In this document: positions 1,787 through 64,000 of the stretch, piece after piece
Numbering within the stretch: position 1 is the first letter of the stretch
Layout: each line of letters starts with the position of its first letter
DNA from: a virus
Lineage: Duplodnaviria; Caudoviricetes
Virus record (IMG/VR): IMGVR_UViG_3300017780_003104
Span: 1-64,000 of that record
Length of the DNA: 64,000 bases
Strand: one strand, 5' to 3'
Made by a program: the position numbers and the translations under genes
Notes under the pieces: model-generated
The model's database searches: none
Seen by the model: only the letters and a program-made list of their open reading frames with translations
What the model was told of the DNA's origin: nothing

Positions 1787-2350
1787 TTAGAATAACGGGG
1801 TTGTAAGTTCTTGTTCAATTTTTAATTGAAGTTTAGACTCTACCGCTTGCTTAATATATTTATCAGCAGCTGCATAGTTTTTTGTTAAAATGGCATCAAT
1901 AAAGTTTACAATATTGACATTTTCATCAAATGTTTCCTTTCTATCATAAGAACCTTTACCCTTTTTTGGAGATTCAACCTTAGTAGCAGGAGCAAATTTC
2001 TTACGATCCTTGACATTTGGACCCTTGATGGTTGCTTTGCCAGTTTTTCTCATTTGTTTTCCGATTGATTGTTCGTCTTCTTCACCTCTGATAGTATCCC
2101 TTGAAGGTTTTTTTGATTTGTTTTGTTTTTTGAAATTGCTATCGATTTGTTTATCATCCCACGCATCACCAAGATTTCTAGGTTTACGTTTTCCTCTAAC
2201 CTGAACACCTTCATCTTCAGCTTTACCAAACTCTTTTTTTTCTTGTTGTGATTTTGGACTTCTCATCCAATGGGGTGGGACTTCCTTTTTGGAATTCGAT
2301 TCCACTATCGCACCATTTTCTCTTTTTCGGTTTTCTGTCTTAGCTGGCAT
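1787..2350 (-). CDS. Prohead core protein, gp67-like C-terminus with Lys-rich N-terminus containing an ArfA-like motif
   Basis: C-term NFIDAILTKNYAAADKYIKQAVESKLQLKIEQE resembles T4 gp67 (LIEAIKSNDLVAARKLFAEAM); lies between gp21 and gp22; internal KVESPKKGKGSYDRK. Confidence 0.6.
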   Translation of the reverse strand: MPAKTENRKRENGAIVESNSKKEVPPHWMRSPKSQQEKKEFGKAEDEGVQVRGKRKPRNLGDAWDDKQIDSNFKKQNKSKKPSRDTIRGEEDEQSIGKQMRKTGKATIKGPNVKDRKKFAPATKVESPKKGKGSYDRKETFDENVNIVNFIDAILTKNYAAADKYIKQAVESKLQLKIEQELTTPLF

Positions 2351-2355
2351 GGTAT

Positions 2356-2362
2356 TATTTAT
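2356..2362 (-). promoter_or_regulatory. Late promoter ATAAATA (gp67-like gene)
   Basis: 5 nt before ATG 2350. Confidence 0.7.
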
Positions 2363-3027
2363 CCTAAAGAATTTATAAACTTGATTACTTGTTCACGTAA
2401 AAATGAATCAGCATCTTTTTTTGGAAGTTTAGATATAACTTTTTCAAAATTATCATACATCTCTTCAAATCTTCCTTCATTATCAATCACAAAAGATTTA
2501 GATTCTAATATACCATTAACGAATGCTTTTGGATATGATGGATCTGCAACAGCATCGATAGCTACTAGATACATATTTTGAACTAAATTGTGATCATTTG
2601 CTTCTTTCAATGAACCTAATGCTCTAGTTGACACGCCTACTTTAACACCATCATTGATAAGCGATCTTAAAATCTGACCACATGGGGTTGACAACACTTT
2701 CGACTTACCATGAAACCCACCATCAGCTTCATATAGTTCAGTAACTAAGTGACACGCTCTTTCTAAATTGACATCAGCACTAGAAGGGTGATTAAGTTCA
2801 CCCATCGCTCTTCCGGGTTCAACCATCTCTTGTATATATCGTTGGACATCTTTACGAGTATCATCTAATCCATATAGTCTTTTATTCTTATTGACTATAC
2901 CACAACCAATGAATGGTCCTTTAATATATAATGTCGACTGTCCTTTTAAATTAGCTTGCTCTTCAAGATATTCAAAATTGTCAAATGCTTCTGGATTTTC
3001 AGCTATCAGCTTTAATTGTAATGCCAT
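2359..3027 (-). CDS. gp21: Prohead maturation protease (gp21-like)
   Basis: LYIKGPF, NKNKRLY, AMGELNHP, GVSTRALGSL, DAVADPSYPKAFV motifs. Confidence 0.96.
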   Translation of the reverse strand: MALQLKLIAENPEAFDNFEYLEEQANLKGQSTLYIKGPFIGCGIVNKNKRLYGLDDTRKDVQRYIQEMVEPGRAMGELNHPSSADVNLERACHLVTELYEADGGFHGKSKVLSTPCGQILRSLINDGVKVGVSTRALGSLKEANDHNLVQNMYLVAIDAVADPSYPKAFVNGILESKSFVIDNEGRFEEMYDNFEKVISKLPKKDADSFLREQVIKFINSLG

Positions 3028-3032
3028 GTATA

Positions 3033-3040
3033 TATTTATA
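3033..3040 (-). promoter_or_regulatory. T4-type late promoter TATAAATA (gp21)
   Basis: Exact T4 consensus, 5 nt before ATG 3027. Confidence 0.85.
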
Positions 3041-3059
3041 CAAAAATATAATAAATCTA

Positions 3060-3515
3060 TTAGTTTAACTCTTTTTCAGTTATAATAATGAACTCCATTC
3101 CATGTTTCTTGGCGAATTCTTTGGCATATTTCCACTTATCGGTATTATTTTGAAACATCACCTTTTCATATAGTAAGTTGGTTTTACTTTTACCTTTGGT
3201 TGATTTAGGCTCTAGTGTTTGTTTGTGTGGTTTTATTTCCACCAAATATTTTTTAACAACATCACCTTCAAGTATTTCAACAAAATTATCTACATAATAT
3301 TTCCTATTACATCTTTTAACACTATCAAAATATTCAACAATAATAGATTCGGATGACCACCTTAAAATATTATCAGTCTTATCACACCAACGCATGAACT
3401 TAAGTTCTAGTCCAGATCTATATATAATTGGACCTTTTCCTATATATTTTTCAGGATTTATAACTTTATAATATCCTTGATGGAATTTTGGATTTTTATT
3501 AAGACCCAATCCCAT
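3060..3515 (-). CDS. gp4: Head completion nuclease (gp4 / TnsA-like PD-(D/E)xK)
   Basis: NPEKYIG, IIYRSGLELKFMRWCD, WSSE, YYVDNF, LVEIKP, KWKYA..F motifs. Confidence 0.92.
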   Translation of the reverse strand: MGLGLNKNPKFHQGYYKVINPEKYIGKGPIIYRSGLELKFMRWCDKTDNILRWSSESIIVEYFDSVKRCNRKYYVDNFVEILEGDVVKKYLVEIKPHKQTLEPKSTKGKSKTNLLYEKVMFQNNTDKWKYAKEFAKKHGMEFIIITEKELN

Positions 3516-3518
3516 ATA

Positions 3519-3762: not shown

Positions 3763-4128
3763 TTATCCAACATATGGATCATTAGAAATTGTTACCGTGC
3801 TATCGGGATTAACCGTGAATGCATGTGTTGGTAACTTGATATCTGGTTGAATACCAGCAGCACTGGCAGCAGTCATGATCGCAACCGTTAATGCGCCATG
3901 TGCAGCAATCAGAACACCTCCATCTGTTCCAACTGCATCTGAAATTTCTTGGGGTGTTAAATATGGATTATACCACATTGCATCGATACCTTCTTTTTGC
4001 ATGCTGCATAATTGGGAATAATGTCGTTGACTCATATTAGCAATCTGGCGAGAAATTTCACTCTGTTTTTCTGCAAGAGTTGGTTCTGGAATAGGGGGTG
4101 GTTGGGTAATGTTTTGGAATATACTCAT
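3763..4128 (-). CDS. Hypothetical late protein
   Basis: ORF 121 aa with CTAAATA box 6 nt upstream. Confidence 0.6.
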   Translation of the reverse strand: MSIFQNITQPPPIPEPTLAEKQSEISRQIANMSQRHYSQLCSMQKEGIDAMWYNPYLTPQEISDAVGTDGGVLIAAHGALTVAIMTAASAAGIQPDIKLPTHAFTVNPDSTVTISNDPYVG

Positions 4129-4146
4129 ATTTTGTATTTAGCTTAA

Positions 4147-7675: not shown

Positions 7676-10534
7676 TTAGATGATGATCCAATTGGAATTT
7701 GTGGATTGGATTGTTATGGATTGGTATTGCATAGTCAAAAGTGCGGTGTTTCCCCCATCAATAGTTTCCGAATAATTACCACTCAGGGTTATGACCCCAG
7801 TTCCAGTATTTTTGATGTTATAAATTCTGCCTAATATTCCATTGGCGGATGGTAGCGTTACTGTATATGAACTCAATAAACAATTTATAGTATAATCTGA
7901 ATTGGTGATTGTATACCTATCGGAAATCTCCTTATAGGGTTTTGAGAGGTGAACTTCATTAGTTAGTGGTCCTCCATATGGGGCAATAACCACAGCTTTC
8001 GCACCACCAAGAACCGGGGAAGTAAACGTGATGACATCATTACTGATGGTGTAATCAACTGTAGGTTCTTGTATAGCACCATCAATAGATACTATTAAAG
8101 CATTTGGATTAGTTAAATTATCAGCCCCACTTATATTGAATACCGTAGTGACACCATTACCAGCAAGTGTTGTCTTCACTGGATCTGTTACTCTTGCCGT
8201 GAAGTCAAAATATCCCGCATCATTATCCCATACTGGAATTTGACCACTCGTTGTTAATGCGGTCCCATTAACATCTGAAAGTTCCTCAAGCGTTTTGTGG
8301 TGCTCTATGGAAATAAATATTGAACCAACACCCGGACCACCCAGTACCCCAACATGTCCAATCACATCGGAATCATGAGGTGCGGTAGGCTCGATGTTCG
8401 TGAGTTGTCCAGCAATAGTTTTTGAGACATATAAAGTATCACCCTCACTCCAAGTGGTCCCCCAATTTCCCGAACCAGAATAATTCGTTTTGATTTGGCG
8501 AACATATCCAAAGGTTGTGATGAATCCATCACTATTATCACTTATATCTTCAGTTGTTACACCGACCACAACCGAAGTCGCGTGATTGTTGGATTGCGCT
8601 TTATGTATTAGTGGGCGATTTCCAGCCCTACCATTAAAATATACGGGTATTCCGTTGAGTATCGCAGAGCCTGTGGTGTTCCGAACTCTGATAAATAGTT
8701 CTTGTCCCATTTGCTGGGTTGCTCCATCATGAACAAGGTTGACGGTTCCATCAGTAGAATTCCAATACATACCGCCAGTCGGCTCCGACCCAGTTGGAAT
8801 ATACGAAGTGTTGAATTGGACATGGGGGGTATAAATTGTGCTGTTGTAAACAGATAATGCTCCATACATCGTCCCACCAGATAAAGGGAGATATGCACCA
8901 CCGTTACTTCCCCAATAACCACTTTGAGATTGAACAGTAGTATAAGTAGAATCCCAATTACCACTTAATGCTTTTAAGTCTAAACCTTGATAATCCCAAT
9001 CACCACTTTGAGATTGAACGGTAGTGTAAGTAGAATCCCAATTAGCACTTGATGCTCTAACCTTTGTAGAAACAGCTACATCATCACCTCCACCGTTACC
9101 CGCAGGTAATCCTAGATATTGTGATGCTGAGATAGCACCAACAATAGTTAAATTTCCATTCATGGTTCCACCATCCGCAAATTGCATAGCTACGGAACCA
9201 CCACCAGAATATACTGAGATATATTTTCTTAAGCGTGTAACTTCACTATCTACACGATCTTTAATCTTCTTATCGTAATCCTTCTCAAAGGAATCGAAAT
9301 CTTTAACTTCTCTTTTACCTTTGGATTCGATTACATACTCTATCGGCTTCTCATTTTGAATTTTTCGAATCTCTAGTATTAGATTATTTTTAGATTCTGA
9401 AATAAGTTCCATCAATGATGTTCGGACATTTTCAGTAAGATCAAAAGTCTTACCTTCTAACATTTTTAATTTTTCAGAATAATAATTTTCAATAGTCTTT
9501 TCAGATTTGATTATTTTATTATCGACTTCTTCTGATAAGGCTATAGTCAATTCATCAACTTTAGTTGATATATTACCAACTCTTGAGAGAGCTTTATTCA
9601 CTCCTCTATTGATCTTGTCATTGAGTTCGATATTAACTAAAGCTATGGAATTCAATTCCCCTTCGACATTTTCAATTAAAACTTTATCGGCTTTATTTGA
9701 AAGCTTTTCCTCTAAATTCTTTTCAATTGAATCGACTTTCTCCACAATATCTGTGGCGATACTTTTCAATTCTTCGTCTATTTTTGGCTGTAAAGCAGTA
9801 TGAGATTCTTTTACAAGTTCTCTTATAGTCTTATCAAATACTTCGGATGATTTAGTGAAGTCTTCTTGTAAAGAATCCCATAAAGTATTACTAAGATCTG
9901 AAATCTTATTATCTATGGTTTCATTAATTTCACCGAATCTATTATCATTTTCAGATATAAGGTCACTCTTAATCTTATTCGAAATACTTACAAACTCATT
10001 TACTAAATTACATCTAGCATCATTTAAAGTTTTCTTGAGAGCCTTATCCTTCTTGGATGATTCTTCATGTAAGGTTTTTGAATTTTTTTCTTGTATCCTT
10101 TTTAATTCTCTTCTTGCCTGTTGTTTGGCCTTTTCAATTTGTTCAAGAATTTGAGTATTTTTATACTCAGGAATTGCTACAACATATTCCTCCACAATAT
10201 CTTGCGGGTATGTGATTTTTTCTTCAATTATCACTTCATCAAGTGATAAATGTTCTGAATTTAGATTGTCATCGGTATTTTTTTTATTAAACAATACCTC
10301 AAATTTCCCCTTCGATAAAACAAAGGGGTAGTAGCTCTTAACCCCCTCAACTACAACTGGAACAGACACCACTGGATTACCGTTTTGTTCGGAAATCTTT
10401 TCTACTGGATATTTGTTTTTGTTTATCTCTATCTCATAAACACCGAAAAAAATCTCTTCGAAATTTTCAACTTGTAAGATGTTAAGTGAAGAGTTAGTTG
10501 AGGTGAAATTCACCTTTTCGCTAAACAATCTCAT
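7676..10534 (-). CDS. Large virion structural/tail-fibre-like protein (N-terminal coiled coil, C-terminal fibre modules)
   Basis: ~440 aa acidic coiled coil, then SGGGSVAMQFADGGTMNGNLTI, WDSTYTTVQ repeats, GNGVTTVF..VSIDGAIQEP.VDYT module and C-terminal TVTLP..G..YNIKN..ETIDG module. Confidence 0.75.
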   Translation of the reverse strand: MRLFSEKVNFTSTNSSLNILQVENFEEIFFGVYEIEINKNKYPVEKISEQNGNPVVSVPVVVEGVKSYYPFVLSKGKFEVLFNKKNTDDNLNSEHLSLDEVIIEEKITYPQDIVEEYVVAIPEYKNTQILEQIEKAKQQARRELKRIQEKNSKTLHEESSKKDKALKKTLNDARCNLVNEFVSISNKIKSDLISENDNRFGEINETIDNKISDLSNTLWDSLQEDFTKSSEVFDKTIRELVKESHTALQPKIDEELKSIATDIVEKVDSIEKNLEEKLSNKADKVLIENVEGELNSIALVNIELNDKINRGVNKALSRVGNISTKVDELTIALSEEVDNKIIKSEKTIENYYSEKLKMLEGKTFDLTENVRTSLMELISESKNNLILEIRKIQNEKPIEYVIESKGKREVKDFDSFEKDYDKKIKDRVDSEVTRLRKYISVYSGGGSVAMQFADGGTMNGNLTIVGAISASQYLGLPAGNGGGDDVAVSTKVRASSANWDSTYTTVQSQSGDWDYQGLDLKALSGNWDSTYTTVQSQSGYWGSNGGAYLPLSGGTMYGALSVYNSTIYTPHVQFNTSYIPTGSEPTGGMYWNSTDGTVNLVHDGATQQMGQELFIRVRNTTGSAILNGIPVYFNGRAGNRPLIHKAQSNNHATSVVVGVTTEDISDNSDGFITTFGYVRQIKTNYSGSGNWGTTWSEGDTLYVSKTIAGQLTNIEPTAPHDSDVIGHVGVLGGPGVGSIFISIEHHKTLEELSDVNGTALTTSGQIPVWDNDAGYFDFTARVTDPVKTTLAGNGVTTVFNISGADNLTNPNALIVSIDGAIQEPTVDYTISNDVITFTSPVLGGAKAVVIAPYGGPLTNEVHLSKPYKEISDRYTITNSDYTINCLLSSYTVTLPSANGILGRIYNIKNTGTGVITLSGNYSETIDGGNTALLTMQYQSITIQSTNSNWIII
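8919..9044. repeat. 42-bp direct repeat (8919-8960 and 9003-9044) encoding NWDSTYTTVQSQSG twice
   Basis: Two copies 84 nt apart with 2 mismatches. Confidence 0.9.
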
Positions 10535-10541
10535 TCAATTA

Positions 10542-10548
10542 TATTTAG
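10542..10548 (-). promoter_or_regulatory. Late promoter CTAAATA (952-aa fibre gene)
   Basis: 7 nt before ATG 10534. Confidence 0.7.
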
Positions 10549-11062: not shown

Positions 11063-12214
11063 TTATCTTACAAACATTTGAATAGGATCATAACTACCAA
11101 AACCACCAGATCCTTCCATGAGCATGGTTTCTAAGCGTTCTTTATCAGCATTACCTTCAGCTAATACTGCATCCCCATTGAGAGTTCCACCACCCAATAG
11201 GGTAGTTCCAGTTATTTTAGTAAGAATTCTACCCCACATTATCTTAGACAATGCTGTGGCATATTCCAATACCCATTTCTCCTTTATAATATCCCTCAGA
11301 GGTCTTTCAACATAACATTCTAAAACTCCAACAAAACTTGATGTCTCCTTGGGTTGTGGATAAAATCTTAAATATTGGGTTCTATTATCGAAATGTATAT
11401 CTCTCCTGATGGCTAATAATTTTTCACGGGTATCTTGCCAATCTTTAACAACATGCCAAGATAATAAATCAAACCCAAAGTTACCCATAGCATAACTATA
11501 AAATGTTTGTTGCGCCAATGTTTGCTCCATTGAAAATAAACTCGTTATACCACTACTAGATCCTTCTTCAAAGTCTACAACATCTATAACTTTTCTATAA
11601 TCCATAATATCATAATCGAACATGTTATTAATTTTATTAACATTTTCAACTTGCTCGCATTGCATAGTAAATGGTTTCATAGGGGAAATGCGAAACAATC
11701 CACTCAAAGATACATCAAATGCTGTTAATTGAGTAAAAGAGTTCTCATCTAAAATCTGCAATGTAGATATCCCATCCGATGGTATTGACGCAGATAATGC
11801 ACTTGAACTTAAAAAATAGTTATATGGTATATCTGACAACGATACGTATAAATTTTCTCTAAATTTTAGTTCAAAATCTGGATTTGGAACCGTTGAAGTA
11901 TTTAATTTTTGAGATAGTGTAAACCCTGTATGAGCGGCAGTATATAAATAATCTAATCTAATTCCTCTATCTCTTTCATATATATCAGATGAAAATATTA
12001 GATTCTCCTTTGTATATCCAGCATACTTGGTGAAAAATTCACATGACATGGATATGGCATCATATAATTGATCTGGGTGAATCTCAACATTAATCATAGG
12101 ATGACCCAACATCCTAAGAATTCTTTGTCCCAATTCTTGAAAGCATTCAATTTTGGAATTTAAATTAGTGGACATAAACGCCGATACTGGCGTTATTGTG
12201 CAAAGGTCTGACAT
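11063..12214 (-). CDS. gp13: Neck protein (gp13-like)
   Basis: ILRMLGHPMINVEI..DQLYDAI; WVLEYATALSKIMWGRILTK; TLLGGGTLNGD; ERLE. Confidence 0.92.
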   Translation of the reverse strand: MSDLCTITPVSAFMSTNLNSKIECFQELGQRILRMLGHPMINVEIHPDQLYDAISMSCEFFTKYAGYTKENLIFSSDIYERDRGIRLDYLYTAAHTGFTLSQKLNTSTVPNPDFELKFRENLYVSLSDIPYNYFLSSSALSASIPSDGISTLQILDENSFTQLTAFDVSLSGLFRISPMKPFTMQCEQVENVNKINNMFDYDIMDYRKVIDVVDFEEGSSSGITSLFSMEQTLAQQTFYSYAMGNFGFDLLSWHVVKDWQDTREKLLAIRRDIHFDNRTQYLRFYPQPKETSSFVGVLECYVERPLRDIIKEKWVLEYATALSKIMWGRILTKITGTTLLGGGTLNGDAVLAEGNADKERLETMLMEGSGGFGSYDPIQMFVR

Positions 12215-12219
12215 AATTA

Positions 12220-12237
12220 TATTTAGTTCATTAAATA
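12220..12237. promoter_or_regulatory. Back-to-back divergent late promoters CTAAATA(-) and TTAAATA(+)
   Basis: Each 5 nt before ATG 12214(-) and 12243(+). Confidence 0.8.
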
Positions 12238-12242
12238 ATAAT

Positions 12243-12638
12243 ATGCCATTTGAAAGTAATACTGGATCTATATATTATGAATTATCTTGTGGAATTCCAT
12301 CAGATGTGGGTGTTGATATAGATTCGAATGTGTTCACCGGATATTATCACCTATCCGCAAATGATTTTATACTATGGGGTCAAAGCACTCACTACGTTCA
12401 CATATCATCAAATAAAGGTAGCTCTCCATATTATTTGGAATGTGATGTCCCCAGTGATGCTGGATTAAACTTACAATCAAATGCTGGAACCCATTATTAT
12501 TACAATTCAGCCTTTAACTGTGTGAGCTTCTGTGACCCAGTATATAGAAACTTACAAGATGTTATGTATATACTGCTTCTAAATGGGGATGTCTTATATT
12601 ACGATGGAAATTTACTGACATGGACGCCAGTTGTATGA
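12243..12638 (+). CDS. Hypothetical late protein with internal duplication
   Basis: Start at ATG 12243, 5 nt after TTAAATA; SNTGSIYYELSCGIPSDVG vs SNKGSSPYYLECDVPSDAG duplication. Confidence 0.65.
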   Translation: MPFESNTGSIYYELSCGIPSDVGVDIDSNVFTGYYHLSANDFILWGQSTHYVHISSNKGSSPYYLECDVPSDAGLNLQSNAGTHYYYNSAFNCVSFCDPVYRNLQDVMYILLLNGDVLYYDGNLLTWTPVV

Positions 12639-12646: not shown

Positions 12647-12653
12647 CTAAATA
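12647..12653 (+). promoter_or_regulatory. Late promoter CTAAATA (LRR gene)
   Basis: 5 nt before ATG 12659. Confidence 0.8.
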
Positions 12654-12658
12654 AACAT

Positions 12659-13762
12659 ATGGCAAACCTTGAAATTACAACATCATCTCAAACCGTAAAC
12701 AACCAGATTTTATCTAGCTTAATCGGACCTAATGGCGGAATCGAAACTATGTTAACTTCTACTGAGAGAAGAACACTATCATCATATAATGATGGTGTGG
12801 GGGTAGGGTTTACTAGAGTTATTCAAACAGATCTACCGGGAATTATATGGAATTTGGTTTCATCTGATGTAACATTAGATGCATCGTGGATAGGACTTCC
12901 ATACACTGTTGATCCAGATGGTGATGTTATTGTCAGTATGCAGCTTGCCGACTTTACAGGAACAGTTCCAGATGCGAATGTTCTCGGGGTCGCTAACGGA
13001 ACACTTAGACTTGGAGACGGCAGAACCGCCAATGGGAACAGCGTGGTTAGTCAGCCGCCATCGACGCTGACGCTTATCGCGGATGCTTCAAATGTGGTGA
13101 CGGGGTATCCTGATACCGCTATCGCTGCTAACTGGAGGCTAAATCAAACCACGCTCAAAGGGTTATCTCTTGGCTCGGGGGTGATTACGATAGGAGCTAA
13201 TGCGTTCTCGGGATGCACAGGACTTACTGGCGATTTGGTCATACCTGACAGCGTAACGACTATTGGAACTAATGCATTTTACCAATGCACAGGGATCACT
13301 GGACGCCTAATTCTAGGAAAATCAGTCACTACGATTGAATACGCTGCGTTCCAGTATAATAACTGGACTGGACCACTGATCTTACCAGACTCTTTGACAG
13401 TGATAAATGGGGCAGTATTCAATAACTGCGCTGGGTTCACTGGCGATCTTGTCATCCCCCCAAATTTCACTTCGTTTGGTGCAGGCAAGACGTTCCAAAA
13501 CTGCACTGGTTTTAATGGATCTCTCTACCTACCAGCCTCGCTGACCACCGCGCTAGTGGTAAAAGCCAATACCTTTGGTGGATGCACTGGATTTACTAGG
13601 ATCTATGCCGCTTGCAACGCGAGTGCAATAACCACTGGAGCATTCACAACCCTTACGGGCGTCTCAACGATCTACTATAAGGAAGGCACTACTGGTTGGG
13701 GAGCGTCCTTTGATGGTAAAACTACCGCTGTTTGGACAAGCTGGCCCGATCCAATGCCATGA
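12659..13762 (+). CDS. BspA-type leucine-rich repeat (LRR_5) protein
   Basis: Repeats of LVIPDSVTTIGTNAFYQCTGITG / SGVITIGANAFSGCTGLTG. Confidence 0.92.
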   Translation: MANLEITTSSQTVNNQILSSLIGPNGGIETMLTSTERRTLSSYNDGVGVGFTRVIQTDLPGIIWNLVSSDVTLDASWIGLPYTVDPDGDVIVSMQLADFTGTVPDANVLGVANGTLRLGDGRTANGNSVVSQPPSTLTLIADASNVVTGYPDTAIAANWRLNQTTLKGLSLGSGVITIGANAFSGCTGLTGDLVIPDSVTTIGTNAFYQCTGITGRLILGKSVTTIEYAAFQYNNWTGPLILPDSLTVINGAVFNNCAGFTGDLVIPPNFTSFGAGKTFQNCTGFNGSLYLPASLTTALVVKANTFGGCTGFTRIYAACNASAITTGAFTTLTGVSTIYYKEGTTGWGASFDGKTTAVWTSWPDPMP

Positions 13763-15527: not shown

Positions 15528-17342
15528 TTAAGCTGGAGGTTCTTCTGGGACCATAGGTGCTTCTGGCGCGACACCAGCATTAGGTGGGAGGGTTTCATCG
15601 CCACCAATTGCAGCTTCGCCACCTCCAAATGCTGGAGGCATTCCACCAGAACCACCCATTCCACCAGCACCACCTAAATCACCACCAGCTTCAGGCATAC
15701 CTTGAGCTTGTTGTAATAACTGTTCCTTCCAGTTTGGTCCAAGTGCCATGATCTGTTGAAGTTCCCATTCTAGTTCTGCATCTTTTCGTCTAAGTTCCCT
15801 ATCTGAAAGTATATCCTTATCTTTCCATCCTAAAACTTTCTTCTTAGCATATGTATCTGAAACCTTTTGAGTGGACATTAAATTGTTATAAGAATTGACC
15901 TTCAATTCCATTTTTTGATTATTACGTAAATCGTAGAAATTTGAAGGAGCATTGAATATAACATTGATGTGTTGTTCGGTTAAGTCATATTCTTCAAACA
16001 TTTTACGTAGTTTGAGATGTGTGATGAAACCTCTTTTTAGGCCGGATGCAAATTTCTTCTGCTGTCTCATGACCATAGTTGCAAATTTCAACTCCTCTCT
16101 AAGAATATCAGTCCCATCTCTAAATGAATCTTCTGGATCTAATCTTGAAGTTGGAACTTTAAGCGATCTATATAATTTTTTGATGAAGAACATTAAGTCA
16201 TTAAGCTCTCCAAGACCCGGAGTTCCACCAATTTCACTAACTGTAGTTGGCTCCTGTCCTTGTCTTTTAGCAAACCAATAAGAATCTAAAGTTGATTGTG
16301 GGCTATATTTTTTAACAATATCGCCTTGATCCGCATCAAAAGTCTTTGAAGACCAATATTGAGATTGTAATTTTCTAAGATATGCTTCTGCTTGAGGAAC
16401 AGGAAGTGTTCCAACATCAACATTAAATACAAATCTCAAAGGTGCGTGGACCATTCTATGAATAACAATTGCATCTTCAATCATTGATAACTGTCGATAT
16501 GCTCGTCTACAATTTTCAACAAATGGTATTATAAATTCTTTAGTCTCATTATATGATGCATTATTGATATAAACTACTTGATTTTGTTCCAGTGGAATTG
16601 GTTCATATCGTTCCACTTTTTTAGGATCATTTGGGTCAAAAATTGGTTTTTGATAAAGATACCCTTTAACCACCATATTTTGAATATTAGAAAATACTGG
16701 GTCTATTAAATCTGCTGGCATATTAACAATGCCCAATACACCTTCATTTGCATATTCTTCGTGGATGATTTGTTCGAAATATAATTCGCCTTCAATGAAA
16801 AATTGTCTAAAATATTGCCATCCATTATTGTGAAGATCATAATGTTCAATATACTTATACCATTCACTTTGGAGTTCATCCTTCTTATCTGACTCTAGAC
16901 TTGTATTCTTAAATTTTAAGATAACAATCTCATCATTTTCATCACAATTTATAGTCTCATCGCATATTTCATCCAGAGCGTCTGCAATTTCAGAAAATGC
17001 AGCCATAGTTCTATAATCTCTCAAGCGTCCCGGTTTATTCTCAGATGCACTTGCATACATTATATCCCCGAAAGATTTATCACGCTCAATGGCTGAAAAT
17101 GCAGTGTTGTTATATGGGTTATTAAGCGTTACGGAGTTCTTAGCAAGAGCTTCAGGTCTACGCATTCCAACCTTTTGGAAATATTTATACTTTGTATTTT
17201 TGGACTCATCTGTATCTAAAACACTATAATTATATGGGATACGATTTTTAAGATAGGTCTGCATGGACCTATCATACATTCCAGATTTACCATCTCTTGA
17301 TGTATTGCTCCGATTATTAGGATTATTCTGAATACCTGCCAT
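15528..17342 (-). CDS. gp20: Portal protein (gp20-like)
   Basis: YRTMAAFSEIADALDEI, QLSMIEDAIVIHRMVHAPLRFVFNVDVGTLP..AE.YL, YWFAKRQG..TTVSEIGG, FIKKLYRSLKVPTSRL. Confidence 0.97.
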   Translation of the reverse strand: MAGIQNNPNNRSNTSRDGKSGMYDRSMQTYLKNRIPYNYSVLDTDESKNTKYKYFQKVGMRRPEALAKNSVTLNNPYNNTAFSAIERDKSFGDIMYASASENKPGRLRDYRTMAAFSEIADALDEICDETINCDENDEIVILKFKNTSLESDKKDELQSEWYKYIEHYDLHNNGWQYFRQFFIEGELYFEQIIHEEYANEGVLGIVNMPADLIDPVFSNIQNMVVKGYLYQKPIFDPNDPKKVERYEPIPLEQNQVVYINNASYNETKEFIIPFVENCRRAYRQLSMIEDAIVIHRMVHAPLRFVFNVDVGTLPVPQAEAYLRKLQSQYWSSKTFDADQGDIVKKYSPQSTLDSYWFAKRQGQEPTTVSEIGGTPGLGELNDLMFFIKKLYRSLKVPTSRLDPEDSFRDGTDILREELKFATMVMRQQKKFASGLKRGFITHLKLRKMFEEYDLTEQHINVIFNAPSNFYDLRNNQKMELKVNSYNNLMSTQKVSDTYAKKKVLGWKDKDILSDRELRRKDAELEWELQQIMALGPNWKEQLLQQAQGMPEAGGDLGGAGGMGGSGGMPPAFGGGEAAIGGDETLPPNAGVAPEAPMVPEEPPA

Positions 17343-17347
17343 TTAAG

Positions 17348-17354
17348 TATTTAG
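17348..17354 (-). promoter_or_regulatory. Late promoter CTAAATA (portal)
   Basis: 5 nt before ATG 17342. Confidence 0.8.
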
Positions 17355-17363: not shown

Positions 17364-18446
17364 CTAAATAACAACCACATCCGTATCAATTCTAGCCCAC
17401 CCTGCATCATTGGATGTGACGAAAGTGAAATTACCGGAAGATAACACGTTATAACTCATAGACACGTAAGATATATTATCATTAATATTTGTTATATATG
17501 TATCTGGAATTCTATAAGCTGATATTGTCGGAAATTTGATAGTGTCGATTTCTTCTAGAATAAATCCACCAGAATTGTGACCGCTCAGATACCATGTATT
17601 CCCAAAACCAAATCGCTTACCATAAAAAGTAAATGTATGTGACTGATCTGGAGATATATTTATATTATCGAATATAGGAATTCCATTATAGAAAGTATTG
17701 GTAAATTCTGGGTATGCTGATATTAATATAACATCTGTTGTATTATTAGATGATAATGAGTAATAATCATCATAACCGTTTAATGATGCACCACTAGAGA
17801 CAGTTGTAAAGTTTGTATTAACAACATAAATTGGTGCTTGTGGGGTTTCGTGTGCTGGAAATATCCAACCTTTAATCGTAAATGATGTATTTCCAACAAT
17901 TTTATATTTATCGGAATGATCAATATTCATTGGGTTTTCGAAATCGACATTCCCAGACCAAGTGACTTCAGTTCTCAATTCATCTATAAAATCTATTCCA
18001 AAATCTTCAGGTATCTTCCACGAAATTATGAAATATGGATTACACCATGGAATAAAATTAGATACAATCTGATCGATATCCTCTTTATAATTCGCAACGA
18101 TACTCACTGAAATATCCATTATAATTGGAACTGGAGATGGTATTTTGGAAACGTATCTATTATCCTCGATATTTGGTCGAGTCATCTTTTGATCTTTAAA
18201 TTGAATTCTAGATGAATCTCTTTTTATATTAGTCTGTTCAAAAGATATCACTGGAAGTGTGATATTTTTTGCCTGATTTACGATATCATAGAGAACTCTT
18301 TGTTTAGGGCCAAATATATATCTTACATTAATTTTCTCCTTTTGCTCGAAATCTTTGGTATATCTGTACACAAAAGAATCGTCAAACGCCGCCACAAATT
18401 GTGTAAGACAGTTCAACGATTCTCTATAATATGAATATTTGTTCAC
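17364..18446 (-). CDS. gp15: Tail sheath stabiliser/tail terminator (gp15-like) with C-terminal extension
   Basis: FVAAFDD..VYR, FGPKQRVL, LPVISFE....RD.SR, PVP..MDISVSI, DQIVSNFIPWCNPY; GTG start. Confidence 0.85.
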   Translation of the reverse strand: MNKYSYYRESLNCLTQFVAAFDDSFVYRYTKDFEQKEKINVRYIFGPKQRVLYDIVNQAKNITLPVISFEQTNIKRDSSRIQFKDQKMTRPNIEDNRYVSKIPSPVPIIMDISVSIVANYKEDIDQIVSNFIPWCNPYFIISWKIPEDFGIDFIDELRTEVTWSGNVDFENPMNIDHSDKYKIVGNTSFTIKGWIFPAHETPQAPIYVVNTNFTTVSSGASLNGYDDYYSLSSNNTTDVILISAYPEFTNTFYNGIPIFDNINISPDQSHTFTFYGKRFGFGNTWYLSGHNSGGFILEEIDTIKFPTISAYRIPDTYITNINDNISYVSMSYNVLSSGNFTFVTSNDAGWARIDTDVVVI

Positions 18447-18452
18447 TCCTTT

Positions 18453-18459
18453 TATTTAG
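18453..18459 (-). promoter_or_regulatory. Late promoter CTAAATA (gp15)
   Basis: 6 nt before GTG 18446. Confidence 0.75.
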
Positions 18460-21513: not shown

Positions 21514-21519
21514 TACCCA

Positions 21520-21548
21520 ATTATAACCACAAAATGGATGGTTGTCAA
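21520..21548 (-). promoter_or_regulatory. Perfect sigma70 early promoter TTGACA-N17-TATAAT, 6 nt before the helicase ATG
   Basis: Minus strand TTGACAaccatccattttgtggtTATAATtgggtaATG. Confidence 0.85.
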
Positions 21549-22483: not shown

Positions 22484-22897
22484 TTATTTAACCTTGCAAA
22501 TACCGAACATTCGTTGTTCGTTCAAGAAAAGCCCTTTATCAATCTTACCGTGACCATCGACTTCAACATTGGTAACTTGGATTCCCATATTTGCAGGGAA
22601 TAATACAATCTCTCCAATTTCAGTATATCGAACATTTGGTCCTTTAAGGATAACTTTACCCTTTCTCCACATGTTATGGACTTGATTAGTTGGGATGGCG
22701 ATACCGCCACGCATAACGTATTCGACACCATCTTCACCACTCTGCAAGTCACAGAATTCGATCAGCATTACATCATCCATCAACTTTGACAATTTATAAT
22801 CCTCTAAACCGAAATCGGTAGGTAGATTCTTATCTGAAAGATCGATATGGGAATGGAGAGGTTTTAAAAGGTCGATTGATGCTGGTTGTTCACTCAT
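22484..22897 (-). CDS. groES: GroES-like co-chaperonin (gp31-like)
   Basis: LMDDVMLIE, RGGIAIP, GKVILKGPNV...IGEIVLF. Confidence 0.75.
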   Translation of the reverse strand: MSEQPASIDLLKPLHSHIDLSDKNLPTDFGLEDYKLSKLMDDVMLIEFCDLQSGEDGVEYVMRGGIAIPTNQVHNMWRKGKVILKGPNVRYTEIGEIVLFPANMGIQVTNVEVDGHGKIDKGLFLNEQRMFGICKVK

Positions 22898-23240
22898 GAA
22901 TGTATTTACGCATATCGTCCATCATGTCAATCTCTCGTTTAGAATAAAATTCAGGAATATGAATTTGATCTATCTTTTCAGCTTTAGGTTTTTTTATATA
23001 AGCTATTTTTTTATATTTTTGCTTCGGGATGATATGTTCAAAGTATTTAAATTGATCCTCTTTAGTTTTAAAGATATTATAACTATTTAAAAAATCATTA
23101 ATATAATCGACAAATTTTCCATTTTCATAAAACGAGAATGTTTTAGTGGTTAAAAATGGGTTAAAATTTTCGAGTAATTCATTATCCAATTCAGTCTTAT
23201 CCTGTTTGAATATAAGGTAGTCAGTTGTTTTAAAGCTCAT
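22890..23240 (-). CDS. gp62: Clamp loader small subunit (gp62-like)
   Basis: FNPFL..KTFS, QFKYF...IPKQKYKKIAYIKK resembles gp62 family. Confidence 0.6.
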   Translation of the reverse strand: MSFKTTDYLIFKQDKTELDNELLENFNPFLTTKTFSFYENGKFVDYINDFLNSYNIFKTKEDQFKYFEHIIPKQKYKKIAYIKKPKAEKIDQIHIPEFYSKREIDMMDDMRKYIHE

Positions 23241-40633: not shown

Positions 40634-40641
40634 TATTTATA
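40634..40641 (-). promoter_or_regulatory. Late promoter TATAAATA
   Basis: Exact T4 consensus, 5 nt before ATG 40628. Confidence 0.8.
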
Positions 40642-52594: not shown

Positions 52595-54197
52595 ATTTAA
52601 TATTTCTACCTTCCCAATAGTTATTGGGTTTTTTAAATCCACGATCTTTGAAATCACCTTTTGGTTTATTTAAATTATCCTTGTGAACTTGCTCCATCAT
52701 ATATTTCATAGTATATGATTCTTTTAATTTTTTAGATTTTGCAGCAATATAGTCGTCTCCGATATCTTCTGGAGATAGATTAAATTTTTTCAGAACATCG
52801 TCATCGTCATTAACTCTTAGACTAGCGGCATAATTTTTCTGTTTATCTTTATTAATCTTACCCCATTTAGCTGTAAATTCTGCGAAATTTCTTCTCAATT
52901 CTGGTAGCATACCCTGATATTCCGAGTAACCGCTTTTCATATATTCCAATTCTTCCTTAGATTTTTCTAATTTATCTTGTAGATTGTTGATGTACCATTG
53001 ATAATATCTATCAAATGAATTCTTTTCCTCTGGTGTTGTTATATATTGTTTCAATATCCCCGAATCATATCCCGGATATTCATCAGTCCCACTTTCGTTG
53101 CTGTTAACACTATTCAATATTAAATTTAATACTGGATGGATTTCATTTGGAGTGTATGACATAACATCATTGATTTCACTTTGGAATTCTTCCATGGGTA
53201 TGCCACTATCTTTCAAATCTGAGAACTGTTCAATTAAATCTTCTATGATTGTATTTCCAGTTTTATCCCTCGGTAGAATTGCTAAAGATGCTATTTCTGC
53301 TTCAGATAATGGTCGCTCAAGCATTTGATTAAATTGTAATGCTTTTAGGAAAATTCCTCGTTGATCCTCATCCTCATTACCCATATCAACGTTAGATTGA
53401 GTTATTCGATCTAAAATCTTTTTAAATATAGATAATTCGTCTAAGGAATTTAAAATATTTTGAATATTTTCAGTGAAATCATTTACAATACCCGAAGGCT
53501 CACTGACTGCTTGACCTTTAGTAGTATCTTTACGTCTTTTATAACCCATTGCTTTATGGATTTTGGTTATAATGTCCTTGATATCCATCTGGGAGGAGTG
53601 AACATCCTCAATAGGAGCACCATATTTTTCTTCTTGCTCCTTCGCCTTATTTATGGAATAACTGGTTTGTCCTGTTCTCCCCGCCCTCATATAATCTGCA
53701 ATTGTTTGGGTATCTAATACTTTGGCTCTAAATTCTGGAGACTTGACATAATCTGGTTGAGTTTCAATGGACTTCATTATGGCTGCACTAAACAATGCAC
53801 CGGGATTCATATATCCATAATTCTTAGATTGATCGTCTAGTGGTATCCCTAATACCTTTTTAGCTAAGTTGGTCAATCCATCCTTACTTCTAACTTTAGA
53901 AAATCCCGATTCTGATTCTACATCGTCATCTATATTTTCCCCCAAATGTTCATTTAACGTATATAGGAAGTATCTTAATACTCTATTTTTATGGACATTT
54001 AATGGTAATCCGGGAACTGTGTTACCTTCCGAATCCTCAATATTTCCATCTCTCATTATTTTACCGACTTGATCAAATAACTGTTTTCCAATAACCCCAT
54101 GTTCACCCAATTTAGTTAATGGGCTAGGTCGAGCCATCTCATTTAATAGTTCTGCTCGTTTGATGAAATAATTGAATCCATATTTAGACATACTCAT
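52593..54197 (-). CDS. Large acidic late protein, putative head-internal/ejection protein
   Basis: ATAAATA box 5 nt upstream; N-term ...RAELLNEMARP resembles a gp21-processed propeptide. Confidence 0.65.
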   Translation of the reverse strand: MSMSKYGFNYFIKRAELLNEMARPSPLTKLGEHGVIGKQLFDQVGKIMRDGNIEDSEGNTVPGLPLNVHKNRVLRYFLYTLNEHLGENIDDDVESESGFSKVRSKDGLTNLAKKVLGIPLDDQSKNYGYMNPGALFSAAIMKSIETQPDYVKSPEFRAKVLDTQTIADYMRAGRTGQTSYSINKAKEQEEKYGAPIEDVHSSQMDIKDIITKIHKAMGYKRRKDTTKGQAVSEPSGIVNDFTENIQNILNSLDELSIFKKILDRITQSNVDMGNEDEDQRGIFLKALQFNQMLERPLSEAEIASLAILPRDKTGNTIIEDLIEQFSDLKDSGIPMEEFQSEINDVMSYTPNEIHPVLNLILNSVNSNESGTDEYPGYDSGILKQYITTPEEKNSFDRYYQWYINNLQDKLEKSKEELEYMKSGYSEYQGMLPELRRNFAEFTAKWGKINKDKQKNYAASLRVNDDDDVLKKFNLSPEDIGDDYIAAKSKKLKESYTMKYMMEQVHKDNLNKPKGDFKDRGFKKPNNYWEGRNIK

Positions 54198-54202
54198 ATG
54201 TT

Positions 54203-54209
54203 TATTTAT
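54203..54209 (-). promoter_or_regulatory. Late promoter ATAAATA (534-aa gene)
   Basis: 5 nt before ATG 54197. Confidence 0.75.
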
Positions 54210-54212
54210 CGT

Positions 54213-54240
54213 TTGACAAAAACTTTCGGCATGGTAAGCT
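54213..54240 (+). promoter_or_regulatory. sigma70-like promoter TTGACA-N16-TAAGCT, 5 nt before ATG 54246
   Basis: Direct reading; TGG precedes the -10 box. Confidence 0.65.
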
Positions 54241-54245
54241 GAGAA

Positions 54246-54953
54246 ATGGAAATCGAAAACTTCAAATATTGCATCGTTTCGGCGGATTCAAAACCATTAA
54301 TAGGGGAATCTTTGAAAAAATACGATCTTTGGGATAAAGCGGTTCAATATCTTAATAATAACTTGGCGTTATGTCAAATTTATAATTATGAGATAGAGAA
54401 AGCATTAGAAAATGATCTGGATTGTCTAATATTAGTCCACGGTGATGTTATTCTTGAGGAAAACCCTATACCCAAACTTGAAAAGTTATTTGATGATTAT
54501 GATTTGGTTGGAGTTGCTGGGACATCTAAGATCGAGTTGAAGAGTCCCGCATTGTGGCATTTGATGGGTGGTGGGTTCTATGATGGAACTAAACCTAGTA
54601 ATTTACACGGCGCAGTCCAACATATAGTAACGAAATCACCACAATCTGGTGTGGGTATGGTGTATCGAGAAAAGCAATTAACTAATTTTGGATTTTATCC
54701 TCATCGGGCAGTGATGATTGATGGAGTTTTCATGGCACTGAATCGTAAAGCGATGGAGAATATCCAATTTGATAGGTATAATCCTTGTCGTTATCATTTT
54801 TATGACTTGATGGCAAGTCTTGACTTCCATTTATCTGGTGGTAGAGTTGGGGTTGGTGACATTCTAATCACACATGCGTCTCCGGGATTACGAGAATACA
54901 CCGAAGATTGGAAGCGCGGCGAAAAATACTTTTTGAACAAATATGAAAACTAG
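54246..54953 (+). CDS. Glycosyltransferase-like protein (GT-A, Glyco_tranf_2_5-like)
   Basis: LCQIYN, ILVHGDV, YDLVGVAG, IDGVFMA, HFYDL..SL. Confidence 0.75.
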   Translation: MEIENFKYCIVSADSKPLIGESLKKYDLWDKAVQYLNNNLALCQIYNYEIEKALENDLDCLILVHGDVILEENPIPKLEKLFDDYDLVGVAGTSKIELKSPALWHLMGGGFYDGTKPSNLHGAVQHIVTKSPQSGVGMVYREKQLTNFGFYPHRAVMIDGVFMALNRKAMENIQFDRYNPCRYHFYDLMASLDFHLSGGRVGVGDILITHASPGLREYTEDWKRGEKYFLNKYEN

Positions 54954-60903: not shown

Positions 60904-61415
60904 GTGTTCATGACGAAACATGGGACAAATGTTCTAAATGTAATCAAACCATAAAAACCTTTCATGGTGATTATCATGATTCGGGTGCATGTTCTCTGTA
61001 TAAGACATGGTATGAGTGGAATGACACATTTAAACCTATAGGTGAGGTAGACTTATCACCAATATTCAAAAATATGAAAGCAAAAAGTAAAAACAATATT
61101 ACAACGGGAGGCTATTTTTTAAATAGATTGAGGGATAGTGGATTTATTGCTATTCGACTGTTTAAGGATTATCCGATTCATGATCCTCGTAAGTGGACTA
61201 TTATGGTAGATCCAAGTGGTCATTCCCTTATGATCACTTGTTATGTAAACAAAGAAGGTCCGGGGGATGTGTATTTCGAATTTAATGATGGTGGAAATAA
61301 GTTTTTAAATAATTATAAGTTAAAAACTCAATCCATGGAGATTATTATAACAACTTTAATCGAAAAGGGTGTTCCACAAAAACAAGATAATAGTAATTAC
61401 ACTAAGAGTGATTAA
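60900..61415 (+). CDS. Hypothetical protein
   Basis: ORF 171 aa; N-terminal CxxC; conserved-looking core from Met 61074. Confidence 0.6.
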   Translation: MSVHDETWDKCSKCNQTIKTFHGDYHDSGACSLYKTWYEWNDTFKPIGEVDLSPIFKNMKAKSKNNITTGGYFLNRLRDSGFIAIRLFKDYPIHDPRKWTIMVDPSGHSLMITCYVNKEGPGDVYFEFNDGGNKFLNNYKLKTQSMEIIITTLIEKGVPQKQDNSNYTKSD

Positions 61416-61423
61416 ATATATTA

Positions 61424-61726
61424 ATGGATGATGATAAGGAGACACCAAACTTCCAAGAATTTAGTGATGATGATGTTAAGAATCTCTTAAAAGAAGCACT
61501 CTCATTACAATTAAAGGAAAAGAGAAAAGTTCCAAAGAGAAATGAATTAAATAATGCATTAATTGGAACTCTAGGTGAGTTTTTAACATGTTTCAAACTT
61601 ATTGGTTATGATTTAGATGGAAATCCAATTAACATGACAGTATATAAAGAGAAGATTGAAAAATCTGCATTGGATAATGCATTCATGGAAGAGATTGGAC
61701 GATTTATGAGCAGTAGAATTGGATAA
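61424..61726 (+). CDS. Hypothetical protein with late promoter
   Basis: TTAAATA 5 nt before ATG. Confidence 0.65.
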   Translation: MDDDKETPNFQEFSDDDVKNLLKEALSLQLKEKRKVPKRNELNNALIGTLGEFLTCFKLIGYDLDGNPINMTVYKEKIEKSALDNAFMEEIGRFMSSRIG

Positions 61727-61986: not shown

Positions 61987-62998
61987 CCTTCCCACTGATT
62001 ATAGTATAGCTAAATTTTATGAATTAGGCTATAAAGTATCGTATAATAATTATAATAATACTTATAATTCTTGTTGTCCTATATGTAAAGAGGGTAAGAG
62101 TTGGGGTAGAAAGAAACGTTGTTTCTATATTCCAGAGAATGATAATATTTTTTGTCATAATTGTGGTTCAAGTTTAAAACCATATAATTGGATACGACAA
62201 GTATCTGGTATGAGTGATTTAGATATCCGCAATGATATAGGTAACAACCAAGTATCAGTAGAATTGAACTTTGATGTCTTTAATATACCGAAGAAATTAC
62301 CATCATTGCCTGATGATAGCATTAATTTGAGTGATTCTACACAATTATCTTATTATAAGGATAATCATATAGTCCAAACGGCACTAGCTTACTTAAAGGG
62401 ACGCAGATTGAACACTGCAATCAATAAATGTAACTTTTACATCTCCCTAAAGGATTATACACATAAAAATAGGTTAGTTATACCATTTTTAGATACTTCT
62501 GGTAATTTTATTCACTATCAGACTAGACGATTGTTTGAATGGGACGAAAAACCCAATTACCTTACTAAATTCAACTCCGATAAATCGATTTTTGGGATAG
62601 ATAGAGTTGATCCGACACTAGATGACGTTTTTATCTTTGAAGGACCACTAGACGCCTGTTTTATGCGAAATGGAGTGGCTGTGGCAGGTATCAATGAAGG
62701 TCATCACAAGTTTACACCAATTCAATTAGAACAATTAGAAGAATTGAAACTCTATACTAAGGTTTGGGTGCTCGATAATCAGTGGATTGATAAGGCAGCA
62801 CGTTTAAAGACTAAAGTTTTACTCGAAATGGGAGAGTGTGTCTTTATTTGGCCTGAGAAGTTCAAAAAGTTCAAGGACTTTAATGAGTTGTGCGTTCATT
62901 GTGGACTTGATGAGATAAAACATTCCTTTATAAAGAAAAACAGCACCTGTGGGAAAGGTGCTGTTGTCAAGTTTAAGGTTTTGTTTGGGAAGTTATAA
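61913..62998 (+). CDS. gp61: DNA primase (gp61-like); start uncertain
   Basis: Zinc finger CPIC...FCHNCG, RLVIPF, FIFEGPLDACF, VWVLDN, KDFNE. Confidence 0.93.
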   Translation: MSKEFLKRLERLPKLNSGTTKKLFDLPTDYSIAKFYELGYKVSYNNYNNTYNSCCPICKEGKSWGRKKRCFYIPENDNIFCHNCGSSLKPYNWIRQVSGMSDLDIRNDIGNNQVSVELNFDVFNIPKKLPSLPDDSINLSDSTQLSYYKDNHIVQTALAYLKGRRLNTAINKCNFYISLKDYTHKNRLVIPFLDTSGNFIHYQTRRLFEWDEKPNYLTKFNSDKSIFGIDRVDPTLDDVFIFEGPLDACFMRNGVAVAGINEGHHKFTPIQLEQLEELKLYTKVWVLDNQWIDKAARLKTKVLLEMGECVFIWPEKFKKFKDFNELCVHCGLDEIKHSFIKKNSTCGKGAVVKFKVLFGKL

Positions 62999-63163
62999 AT
63001 AATTATCTTTAAAATTTTCTTCCCCTTGTTTGAGAGATACTTCAAACATTTTTATTACATGTTTTAGACTTTCAATTGTTTCATCTAAATCAAAACTTTC
63101 CATTTGCTCTAATGTTTGTTTTAATAAACCTTTATTCTTACTAGGTTTGATGAAAAAAGTCAT
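62993..63163 (-). CDS. Hypothetical protein (56 aa)
   Basis: Manual translation MTFFIKPSKNKGLLKQTLEQME...; downstream of the 63625 gene. Confidence 0.4.
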   Translation of the reverse strand: MTFFIKPSKNKGLLKQTLEQMESFDLDETIESLKHVIKMFEVSLKQGEENFKDNYL

Positions 63164-63184
63164 AACTCGTTGATTATCAACAAC

Positions 63185-63625
63185 TCAAACATACTTGAAT
63201 CTTGCGTTGGATGTTTGCGCCATAAACCCTAAGAAGTTCTGGTGAAGGGAAGCTAAGTCGGATGCAACACGACTAATTTTAGTTTGTTGTGATTGTTTCA
63301 TCTTATCCATAACGGTATCTGGTTCAGCAGCAGCCAAACGAGATTGCACACTGTTAGGATCTTCACTATTTAAGAAGTTTAAAAATGTTTCAACTTGATC
63401 AATCCAACCCTGAAGTTCATTAATGATCTGTTGGTTACGTTTTGACATAGCATCGGCAACTTCATCAGTGACTTGCATTTCTTCTGGACTCATTTCGAGA
63501 TTTGTATCAAATTCTGATGGATCAACACCATCATCCAATGACGATTCCATTGCTTTTCTCTCAAGATCACGATCAAGATCTTGTTCTCTTAATACTTTTA
63601 CGAAATTTCGGGCAAATTTGCTCAT
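63185..63625 (-). CDS. Hypothetical acidic late protein, putative head-packaged
   Basis: ATG 63625 5 nt after CTAAATA; MSKFARNFVKVLRE propeptide-like start. Confidence 0.7.
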   Translation of the reverse strand: MSKFARNFVKVLREQDLDRDLERKAMESSLDDGVDPSEFDTNLEMSPEEMQVTDEVADAMSKRNQQIINELQGWIDQVETFLNFLNSEDPNSVQSRLAAAEPDTVMDKMKQSQQTKISRVASDLASLHQNFLGFMAQTSNARFKYV

Positions 63626-63630
63626 ACAGT

Positions 63631-63654
63631 TATTTAGTGTTTTAATACTAAATA
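63631..63654. promoter_or_regulatory. Back-to-back divergent late promoters CTAAATA(-) 63631-63637 and CTAAATA(+) 63648-63654
   Basis: Each 5 nt before ATG 63625(-) and 63660(+). Confidence 0.8.
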
Positions 63655-63659
63655 TATAC

Positions 63660-64000
63660 ATGGCCGAGTCCCCATATTCAACAAAATTCGCATCCGGTGA
63701 GATTGATCACGATCACGATCCAAGAACTCAGATGAGAAATTGGAAAAAAGAAGAGAAAGAAACGCATTATGCACCTAATGTTTTACCATATGAAATGGCA
63801 AATTTGCCTGAATATTATGGAAATATGGTTGATAATGGTATTCAAGCGTGTAAAACCCTTGAAATTGCTTTAAAGAGTAAGGAATTTAAGAATAAAAAAC
63901 AACTTTTAAAACTTAAAGATAATACCGAGAAGATGGTTGTATATCTTTTACAAAATGTAGACTCTGTGTTGGAAAAACATACGATTGGATCGAGACATCT
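63660..64000 (+). CDS. Hypothetical late protein, truncated by window edge
   Basis: CTAAATA 5 nt before ATG 63660; open to end (MAESPYSTKFASGEID...). Confidence 0.65.
   Translation, partial: MAESPYSTKFASGEIDHDHDPRTQMRNWKKEEKETHYAPNVLPYEMANLPEYYGNMVDNGIQACKTLEIALKSKEFKNKKQLLKLKDNTEKMVVYLLQNVDSVLEKHTIGSRH

Follow-up and report, generated by a model that had tools for sequence, protein, structure and literature searches.

Promoter boxes at a fixed distance from start codons suggest leaderless mRNAs in an uncultured freshwater T4-like phage

The textbook example of gene control in a phage is T4, in which late mRNAs carry leaders that contain ribosome-binding sites. Its late promoters are read by gp55 together with gp33 and the gp45 clamp, and the first T of their element TATAAATA is numbered -13 in a review of T4 late transcription. 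The cyanomyovirus late promoter has been given as NATAAATA in S-PM2, with the same motif upstream of the late genes of Syn9, and a published attempt at late-promoter prediction in pelagimyophages was unsuccessful. In the Thermus phages YS40 and Lalka27a most transcripts are leaderless and begin at the first base, A or G, of the initiator codon; their late promoters have a phage-specific -10 element, and a -10 element adjoining the open reading frame (ORF) is common in Deinococcus-Thermus. Here we describe, in the first 64,000 bases of IMG/VR record IMGVR_UViG_3300017780_003104 (the window), TAAATA boxes, very likely T4-family late promoters, that lie exactly five nucleotides (nt) before start codons. 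What is new is the fusion of late promoters to start codons in T4-like phages, a subject on which no paper was found in the literature; T4-type late promoters and leaderless phage transcription were already known. In cyanophage and methylophage papers the word "leaderless" was met only within the title of a cited gene-finder paper.

The window comprises bases 1-64000 of a single contig of 211,724 bp with 34.2% G+C, which IMG/VR classes as a complete virus with direct terminal repeats. The phage is uncultured and represents a deep-branching freshwater line among the T4-like phages. It carries the genes of a T4-like myovirus, with a virion set (major head protein, prohead protease, head closure, portal, gp15-like sheath stabiliser and adaptor) and a replication and recombination set (gp46/47-like nuclease, family B DNA polymerase, DnaB-like helicase, UvsX-like recombinase and gp32-like single-stranded DNA-binding protein). 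Every cultured relative found by tblastn of the portal against a phage collection is at most 29% identical, a 5-kb stretch had no near-identical match in the phage collection, and only 23-25 proteins, at about 31% identity, are common to this phage and each of T4, S-PM2, Syn9, P-SSM4 and HTVC008M. Near-identical DNA occurs in metagenomes from 10 studies (freshwater, river, runoff and soil), and at least 79 related loci are present in IMG/VR, with 61-91% identity in their best portal segments. Two relatives, referred to as G001 and G002, are complete genomes of about 207 kb, and their portals are 90% and 61% identical, respectively, to that of this phage. A host hint was sought by a portal scan of GTDB genome contigs, where nothing was found.

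Late boxes five bases before the start codon

The first-pass annotation of this DNA, made from the letters alone, had placed a TAAATA box exactly 5 nt before the start codons of 12 genes (N5) and 6 or 7 nt before those of a few more (N6, N7). All 19 start contexts that it described read as it had them, and the 12 genes are all found among the N5 sites of the window. These number 14 (TAAATA-N5-ATG), as compared to 2.81±1.51 in 100 dinucleotide shuffles, none of which reached 14 (maximum 7). Thirteen are gene starts, namely those of the 12 genes and that of gene 22484-22897, which the annotation had not listed, and the fourteenth (20484-20497) falls within the helicase gene and is apparently due to chance. 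The peak is also evident when the whole genome is counted without recourse to gene calls. An ATG follows at spacer 5 after 43 of the 336 TAAATA boxes, against 10.1±3.2 in shuffled genomes, and an ORF of 50 amino acids (aa) or more begins at 40 of these sites; every other spacer from 0 to 30 yields about 7 sites, with 0-9 of them ORF-opening. The spacing histogram, a comparison that the first annotation had called for, has a peak at N5 that is sharp, rises above the shuffles and is absent in T4. The boxes of the window are the following:

2348..2361, minus strand: late box TAAATA-N5-ATG of gene 1787-2350 (187 aa, unknown, adjoining the prohead protease gene)
3025..3038, minus strand: late box-N5-ATG of the prohead protease gene (gp21-like, 2359-3027); the G001 orthologue keeps N5
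4126..4140, minus strand: late box-N6-ATG of gene 3763-4128
10532..10547, minus strand: late box-N7-ATG of the gene for a 952-aa virion protein (7676-10534); N7 in G001, N6 in G002
12212..12245, both strands: two back-to-back late boxes in a 28-nt divergent region, N5-ATG 12214 (minus, head-tail adaptor-like) and N5-ATG 12243 (plus)
12648..12661, plus strand: late box-N5-ATG of gene 12659-13762
17340..17353, minus strand: CTAAATA-N5-ATG of the portal gene (gp20-like, 15528-17342)
18444..18458, minus strand: late box-N6-GTG of the gp15-like tail sheath stabiliser gene (17364-18446), spacer AAAGGA; the G001 orthologue has box-N5-GTG without the AAAGGA spacer
22895..22908, minus strand: late box-N5-ATG of gene 22484-22897
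35390..35405, plus strand: late box-N7-ATG of the PhoH-like gene 35403-36140
38167..38180, minus strand: late box-N5-ATG of gene 37768-38169
38982..38996, minus strand: late box-N6-ATG of gene 38538-38984
40626..40639, minus strand: late box-N5-ATG of gene 40380-40628
54195..54248, both strands: divergent 48-nt region with late box-N5-ATG 54197 (minus) and TTGACA-N16-TAAGCT-N5-ATG 54246 (plus)
61413..61426, plus strand: late box-N5-ATG of gene 61424-61726
63623..63662, both strands: back-to-back late boxes in a 34-nt divergent region, N5-ATG 63625 (minus) and N5-ATG 63660 (plus)

The spacing is conserved among the relatives. In the portal gene of 41 of them CTAAATA or TTAAATA is kept 5-6 nt before the ATG, with the letters of the spacer free to vary, and 31 non-redundant portal-region loci (205 kb) contain 73 sites at N5 and 26 at N6, most other spacers giving 0-2. 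The ORF-opening N5 peaks of the complete relatives comprise 44 (G001) and 45 (G002) sites. Moreover, the G001 orthologues of most genes in the earlier annotation start with the same ATG or GTG behind the box, and the starts agree even where a longer ORF would be possible (12243, 38984, 40628, 63625 and 63660). Chance and mis-called starts are ruled out by the gene-call-free counts together with these orthologous starts.

Over 45 N5 sites the consensus is A(C/T)TAAATA, of which the TAAATA core was itself the search word; there is no conservation upstream of -14 and none at -35, and the spacer is A/T-rich. The boxes precede virion genes (protease, portal, gp15-like, adaptor and virion protein), replication genes bearing TTGACA-type promoters instead. 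A gp55 gene had been proposed to start at 43030, which is borne out by matches to the PHROG late sigma factor and to T4 gp55:

43030-43482, plus strand: gp55-like late sigma factor gene (PHROG 234, E 3.9e-26; phmmer against T4 gp55, E 5e-14)

Since gp55 is present, the core matches that of TATAAATA, a -35 element is lacking, the spacer is A/T-rich and virion genes lie downstream, the box is very likely a T4-family late promoter. With the first T of the T4 element at -13 the last A of the box falls at -6, and a 5-nt spacer hence puts +1 on the A of the ATG; the same claim in the first annotation agrees with the numbering of the T4 review. The start codons at N5 (ATG/GTG/TTG) are distributed 40/5/0 here and 42/8/0 and 45/5/0 in the two relatives, and at position -1, where G never occurs, 37 of 45 sites have a pyrimidine. 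This fits the usual start at a pyrimidine(-1)/purine(+1) step, T at -1 being favoured before other genes here too. Terminator hairpins directly before the box were seen at none of the 45 N5 sites here and at 2 each in G001 and HTVC008M, which is anecdotal.

How does this arrangement compare with that of described phages? It has in common with T4 the TAAATA core at -11 to -6, an A/T-rich downstream segment, the lack of a -35 element, gp55, and boxes before virion genes on both strands. It differs in that the distance from TATAAATA to the ATG in T4 is 13-34 nt with a mode of 28, so that the mRNAs are leadered, whereas here it is 5 nt, and in that positions -13/-12 are TA in T4 but A(C/T) here. 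The cyanomyoviruses resemble this phage in their relaxed box, in being aquatic T4-like phages and in lacking MotA-type middle control; in S-PM2, Syn9 and P-SSM4, however, the distance from box to ATG is spread over about 19-40 nt without an N5 peak. RM378 and phiM9 have no TAAATA-N5-ATG site at all. Unexpectedly, the geometry recurs in the cultured pelagimyophage HTVC008M (NC_020484), which has 12 ORF-opening TAAATA-N5-ATG sites against 0-3 at other spacers, and whose N5 sites match annotated late-gene starts (tape measure, DNA end protector, head closure, baseplate tail tube cap and others):

HTVC008M, N5 starts: 6280, 7562, 11972, 16007, 18916, 18943, 19456 and others, often with TAAATAGTAnnATG

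Yet HTVC008M is no closer to this phage than are T4 or the cyanophages (23 common proteins, about 31% identity), and it lacks the TAnAAT-N6 peak that early genes show here (see below). The Thermus phages YS40 and Lalka27a, the described case that comes closest, likewise have a -10-type element a few bases before the ORF, but they are unrelated phages of thermophile hosts known to use leaderless mRNAs, and their 5' ends have been mapped, whereas for the present phage it is deduced from sequence where transcripts begin and how ribosomes are loaded.

Host-type promoters and the one-base offset

Replication and other early genes have promoters of the form TTGACA-N16-18-TAnnnT, which lie 5-9 nt before the ATG. 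Two sigma70-type examples noted earlier, at 21513 and 54246, have indeed the sequences and spacings ascribed to them. The latter is part of the divergent region listed above; the former and a second promoter with the same N6 distance to the ATG are:

21511..21548, minus strand: TTGACA-N17-TATAAT-N6-ATG of the helicase gene 19900-21513
39486..39523, minus strand: TTGACA-N16-TATGCT-N6-ATG of gene 38994-39488

Similar promoters stand 7-9 nt before the ATG at 30731, 33953, 40653, 47693 (DNA polymerase) and 50665.

A further class is formed by a 21-bp motif, TTAATTAAAACCGAAnTAtAAT (ATTAAAACCGAA-TAnAAT, the AAAACC class), which has an ATG exactly 6 nt downstream at 50 of its 73 sites, each of them ORF-opening. 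TAnAAT-N6-ATG occurs 81 times in the genome as compared to 34.9±5.9 times in shuffles. The motif is conserved in G001 and G002, where the N6 peak of the AAAACC class comprises 32 and 34 sites, respectively. It looks like a phage-specific early/middle promoter class with a sigma70-type -10 element, whose upstream element may be read by some factor. A T7-type RNA polymerase was sought as the reader of the motif and no match was obtained, the controls being silent too; the TA...T pattern is a better fit to a sigma70-type -10 element than to such a polymerase. About 50 copies lie outside the window, at 112-177 kb (plus strand) and 195.4-195.7 kb (minus strand), with small ORFs of a median of about 110 aa, and a supposed site within the window, at 58591, proved to be a pattern-match false positive.

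The sigma70 hexamer occupies positions -12 to -7. At N6 the hexamer ends at -7 and at N5 the late box ends at -6, and so both promoter types point to the same +1. A ribosome-binding role offers no reason for this one-base offset between N5 and N6.

Two late boxes have a TTGACA about 16 nt upstream (10548-10569 and 22909-22930, both minus strand, at genes 10534 and 22897). These are possibly dual early-plus-late promoters, such as have been proposed for middle-type genes in RB49 and S-PM2.

Leaderless mRNAs and the competing readings

We believe that the geometry of promoters and starts is best read as a sign of leaderless mRNAs, late and early, and hold this reading to be probable. Host RNA polymerase carrying the phage gp55-like sigma factor would read the A(C/T)TAAATA boxes; with the last A of the box at -6, the first base of the start codon would be +1 and the late mRNA would begin with AUG, sometimes GUG, without a leader. 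The host-type -10 hexamer, ending at -7 and six bases before the ATG, would embody the same design. At the first gene of each transcription unit ribosomes would recognise the 5'-terminal start codon, and downstream genes would be served by coupling, where the stop codon of one gene overlaps or adjoins the start codon of the next, and by Shine-Dalgarno (SD)-independent internal initiation, the latter being invoked because the genome is without an SD signal. The case for leaderless mRNAs is strengthened by the fact that three promoter classes, clade-wide conservation and the contrast with T4 and the cyanophages all bear on it.

The layout of the genes is in line with such a design. In divergent pairs the start codons are 24-87 nt apart and a box abuts 26 of the 40 genes; five divergent pairs, including 12214/12243 and 63625/63660, have two back-to-back N5 boxes within 28-41 nt. 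Starts set so closely leave little room for leaders. About 118 of the 301 genes in a crude gene call start directly behind a promoter box, which is of the late type in 61, of the AAAACC class in 52 and strictly TTGACA in 5. Of the remaining 183 genes (about 60%), 168 have an upstream neighbour on the same strand, and in 105 of these the gap is at most 15 nt or the genes overlap. Most genes must therefore rely on coupling and on SD-independent internal initiation.

Could the box act on the RNA rather than on the DNA? UAAAUA at -11 to -6 would then mainly be an A/U-rich ribosome-loading signal that replaces the SD sequence on leadered or polycistronic transcripts in an SD-poor host, and the spacing would be selected by the ribosome and not by RNA polymerase. 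This we consider unlikely. The motif is the core of the T4-family late promoter and gp55 is encoded; sigma70-type hexamers that are unrelated to the box and have their own TTGACA or AAAACCGAA upstream are also fixed, one base farther, as a common +1 predicts; TTG is never the start at N5; and back-to-back boxes fill divergent regions of 28-44 nt, such that upstream promoters would fit only inside the opposite gene. In favour of a role on the RNA are the position of the box, which is that usual for an SD sequence, the lack of SD signals in the genome, and the many box-bearing genes that lie 4-30 nt behind a same-strand gene, where read-through RNA should carry the motif. Rather improbable, too, is an account in which the boxes are promoters and their tight spacing is a by-product of compaction, with transcription starting a few bases off or protein being made mostly from read-through transcripts, and with leaderless mRNA not being the working mode. 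Neighbouring genes are separated by very little DNA (the median gap is about 12 nt), N6, N7 and N9 variants exist, and the TTGACA-type promoters have no single fixed distance within their 5-9 nt from the ATG, all of which would suit compaction. Compaction alone, however, gives a minimum distance and not a single-base peak, the N5 peak is kept in relatives with portal identity down to about 61%, and the one-base offset between promoter classes needs a common reference point.

The first-pass annotation had gone one step further, in that the leaderless design would allow the phage to escape, or the phage would itself impose, a block on canonical 30S initiation. What speaks for this idea is the geometry itself; host initiation factors reportedly change during infection of Thermus by phage YS40. 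No phage homologue of bS21, IF3 or IF1 was found in searches with positive controls, about 183 of the 301 called genes would still need internal initiation or coupling, and the capsid gene appears leadered. We therefore think it very improbable that such a block is at work.

Several observations weigh against leaderless mRNAs, or narrow what the geometry can say about them. Counting shows no enrichment of the N6 and N7 classes, either in the window (TAAATA-N6-ATG 3 versus 3.06 and TAAATA-N7-ATG 2 versus 2.92 in shuffles) or in the genome (14 versus 9.8±3.6 and 10 versus 10.1±3.2, respectively). Genes do start at the N6 and N7 sites nonetheless, and relatives, too, have the box at the orthologous starts; the contexts described for them in the first annotation are thus correct and the starts conserved, while their number is what chance would give. 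Among 29 N5 genes, 19 follow closely on another gene of the same strand, and read-through leadered transcripts probably also carry the start codons of these 19. Nor is the absence of SD sequences evidence for the N5 genes, because the whole genome is without them: an SD signal is absent before every gene class, G making up 9-17% at -13 to -5, and the genome-wide start context favours T at -1 and A at -3. That the spacers lack an SD sequence had been observed correctly, but it is no specific feature, since about 250 other called genes lack one too. The SD-less genome suggests a host with SD-independent initiation. Furthermore, the distance to the transcription start was taken from T4 for a divergent gp55, and gp33 and gp45 were not detected; the phmmer searches with Syn9 gp33 and T4 gp45, which gave no match, are weak, a Pfam DNA_PPF search found nothing with its controls equally silent, and both proteins diverge fast.

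The major capsid gene (window 3-836, minus strand, ATG at 836) is a further point of this kind, as it has no adjacent late box. The TAAATA nearest to it is at 957-962, about 120 nt upstream and inside the preceding gene, and a contig of a relative from an RNA library runs 32 nt beyond the capsid ATG. Not all late genes, then, follow the rule, and the major capsid gene, the most expressed late gene, may be leadered. The earlier proposal that most first-in-operon mRNAs are leaderless accordingly holds roughly, given the abutting boxes of the divergent genes, but not universally. Seven metatranscriptomes hold 5-6% of the words of window 1-3100, and the RNA contigs, from four metatranscriptomes, cover only the capsid gene of relatives and carry no start information. 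The 61-nt gap upstream of the major head protein gene contains a small hairpin rich in GC.

On a broader scale, whole aquatic T4-like lineages, this freshwater clade and independently HTVC008M, may have SD-less and largely leaderless mRNAs in all temporal classes, with translation beginning at a 5'-terminal AUG or GUG in about 40% of genes and depending on coupling in most others, a generalisation for and against which we see about equal weight. In a large and widespread T4-like clade, promoters of every temporal class appear to be joined directly to the start codon. Were this borne out, leaderless expression could be driven by gp55-type promoters, both the gene starts called and the promoters predicted in aquatic T4-like phages would be corrected, and SD-independent, leaderless-competent translation would be indicated for abundant uncultured hosts, which would either translate leaderless mRNA efficiently or have initiation retuned by the phage in its own favour. 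The cultured pair of HTVC008M and Pelagibacter HTCC1062 is a laboratory system that makes the leaderless question testable.

Tandem repeats and a same-strand gene array

Two other features of the window were noticed. At 19817-19860 (minus strand) three tandem copies of AATAGAAAAGG directly precede the ATG at 19816 and contain a rare SD-like AAGGA. From 23262 to 34527 (minus strand) there extends a long same-strand array of tightly coupled genes with many ATGA overlaps, headed by the TTGACA-type promoters at 30731 and 33953. It contains an aminotransferase gene (29406-30731) and may be an early-expressed sugar-modification cluster.

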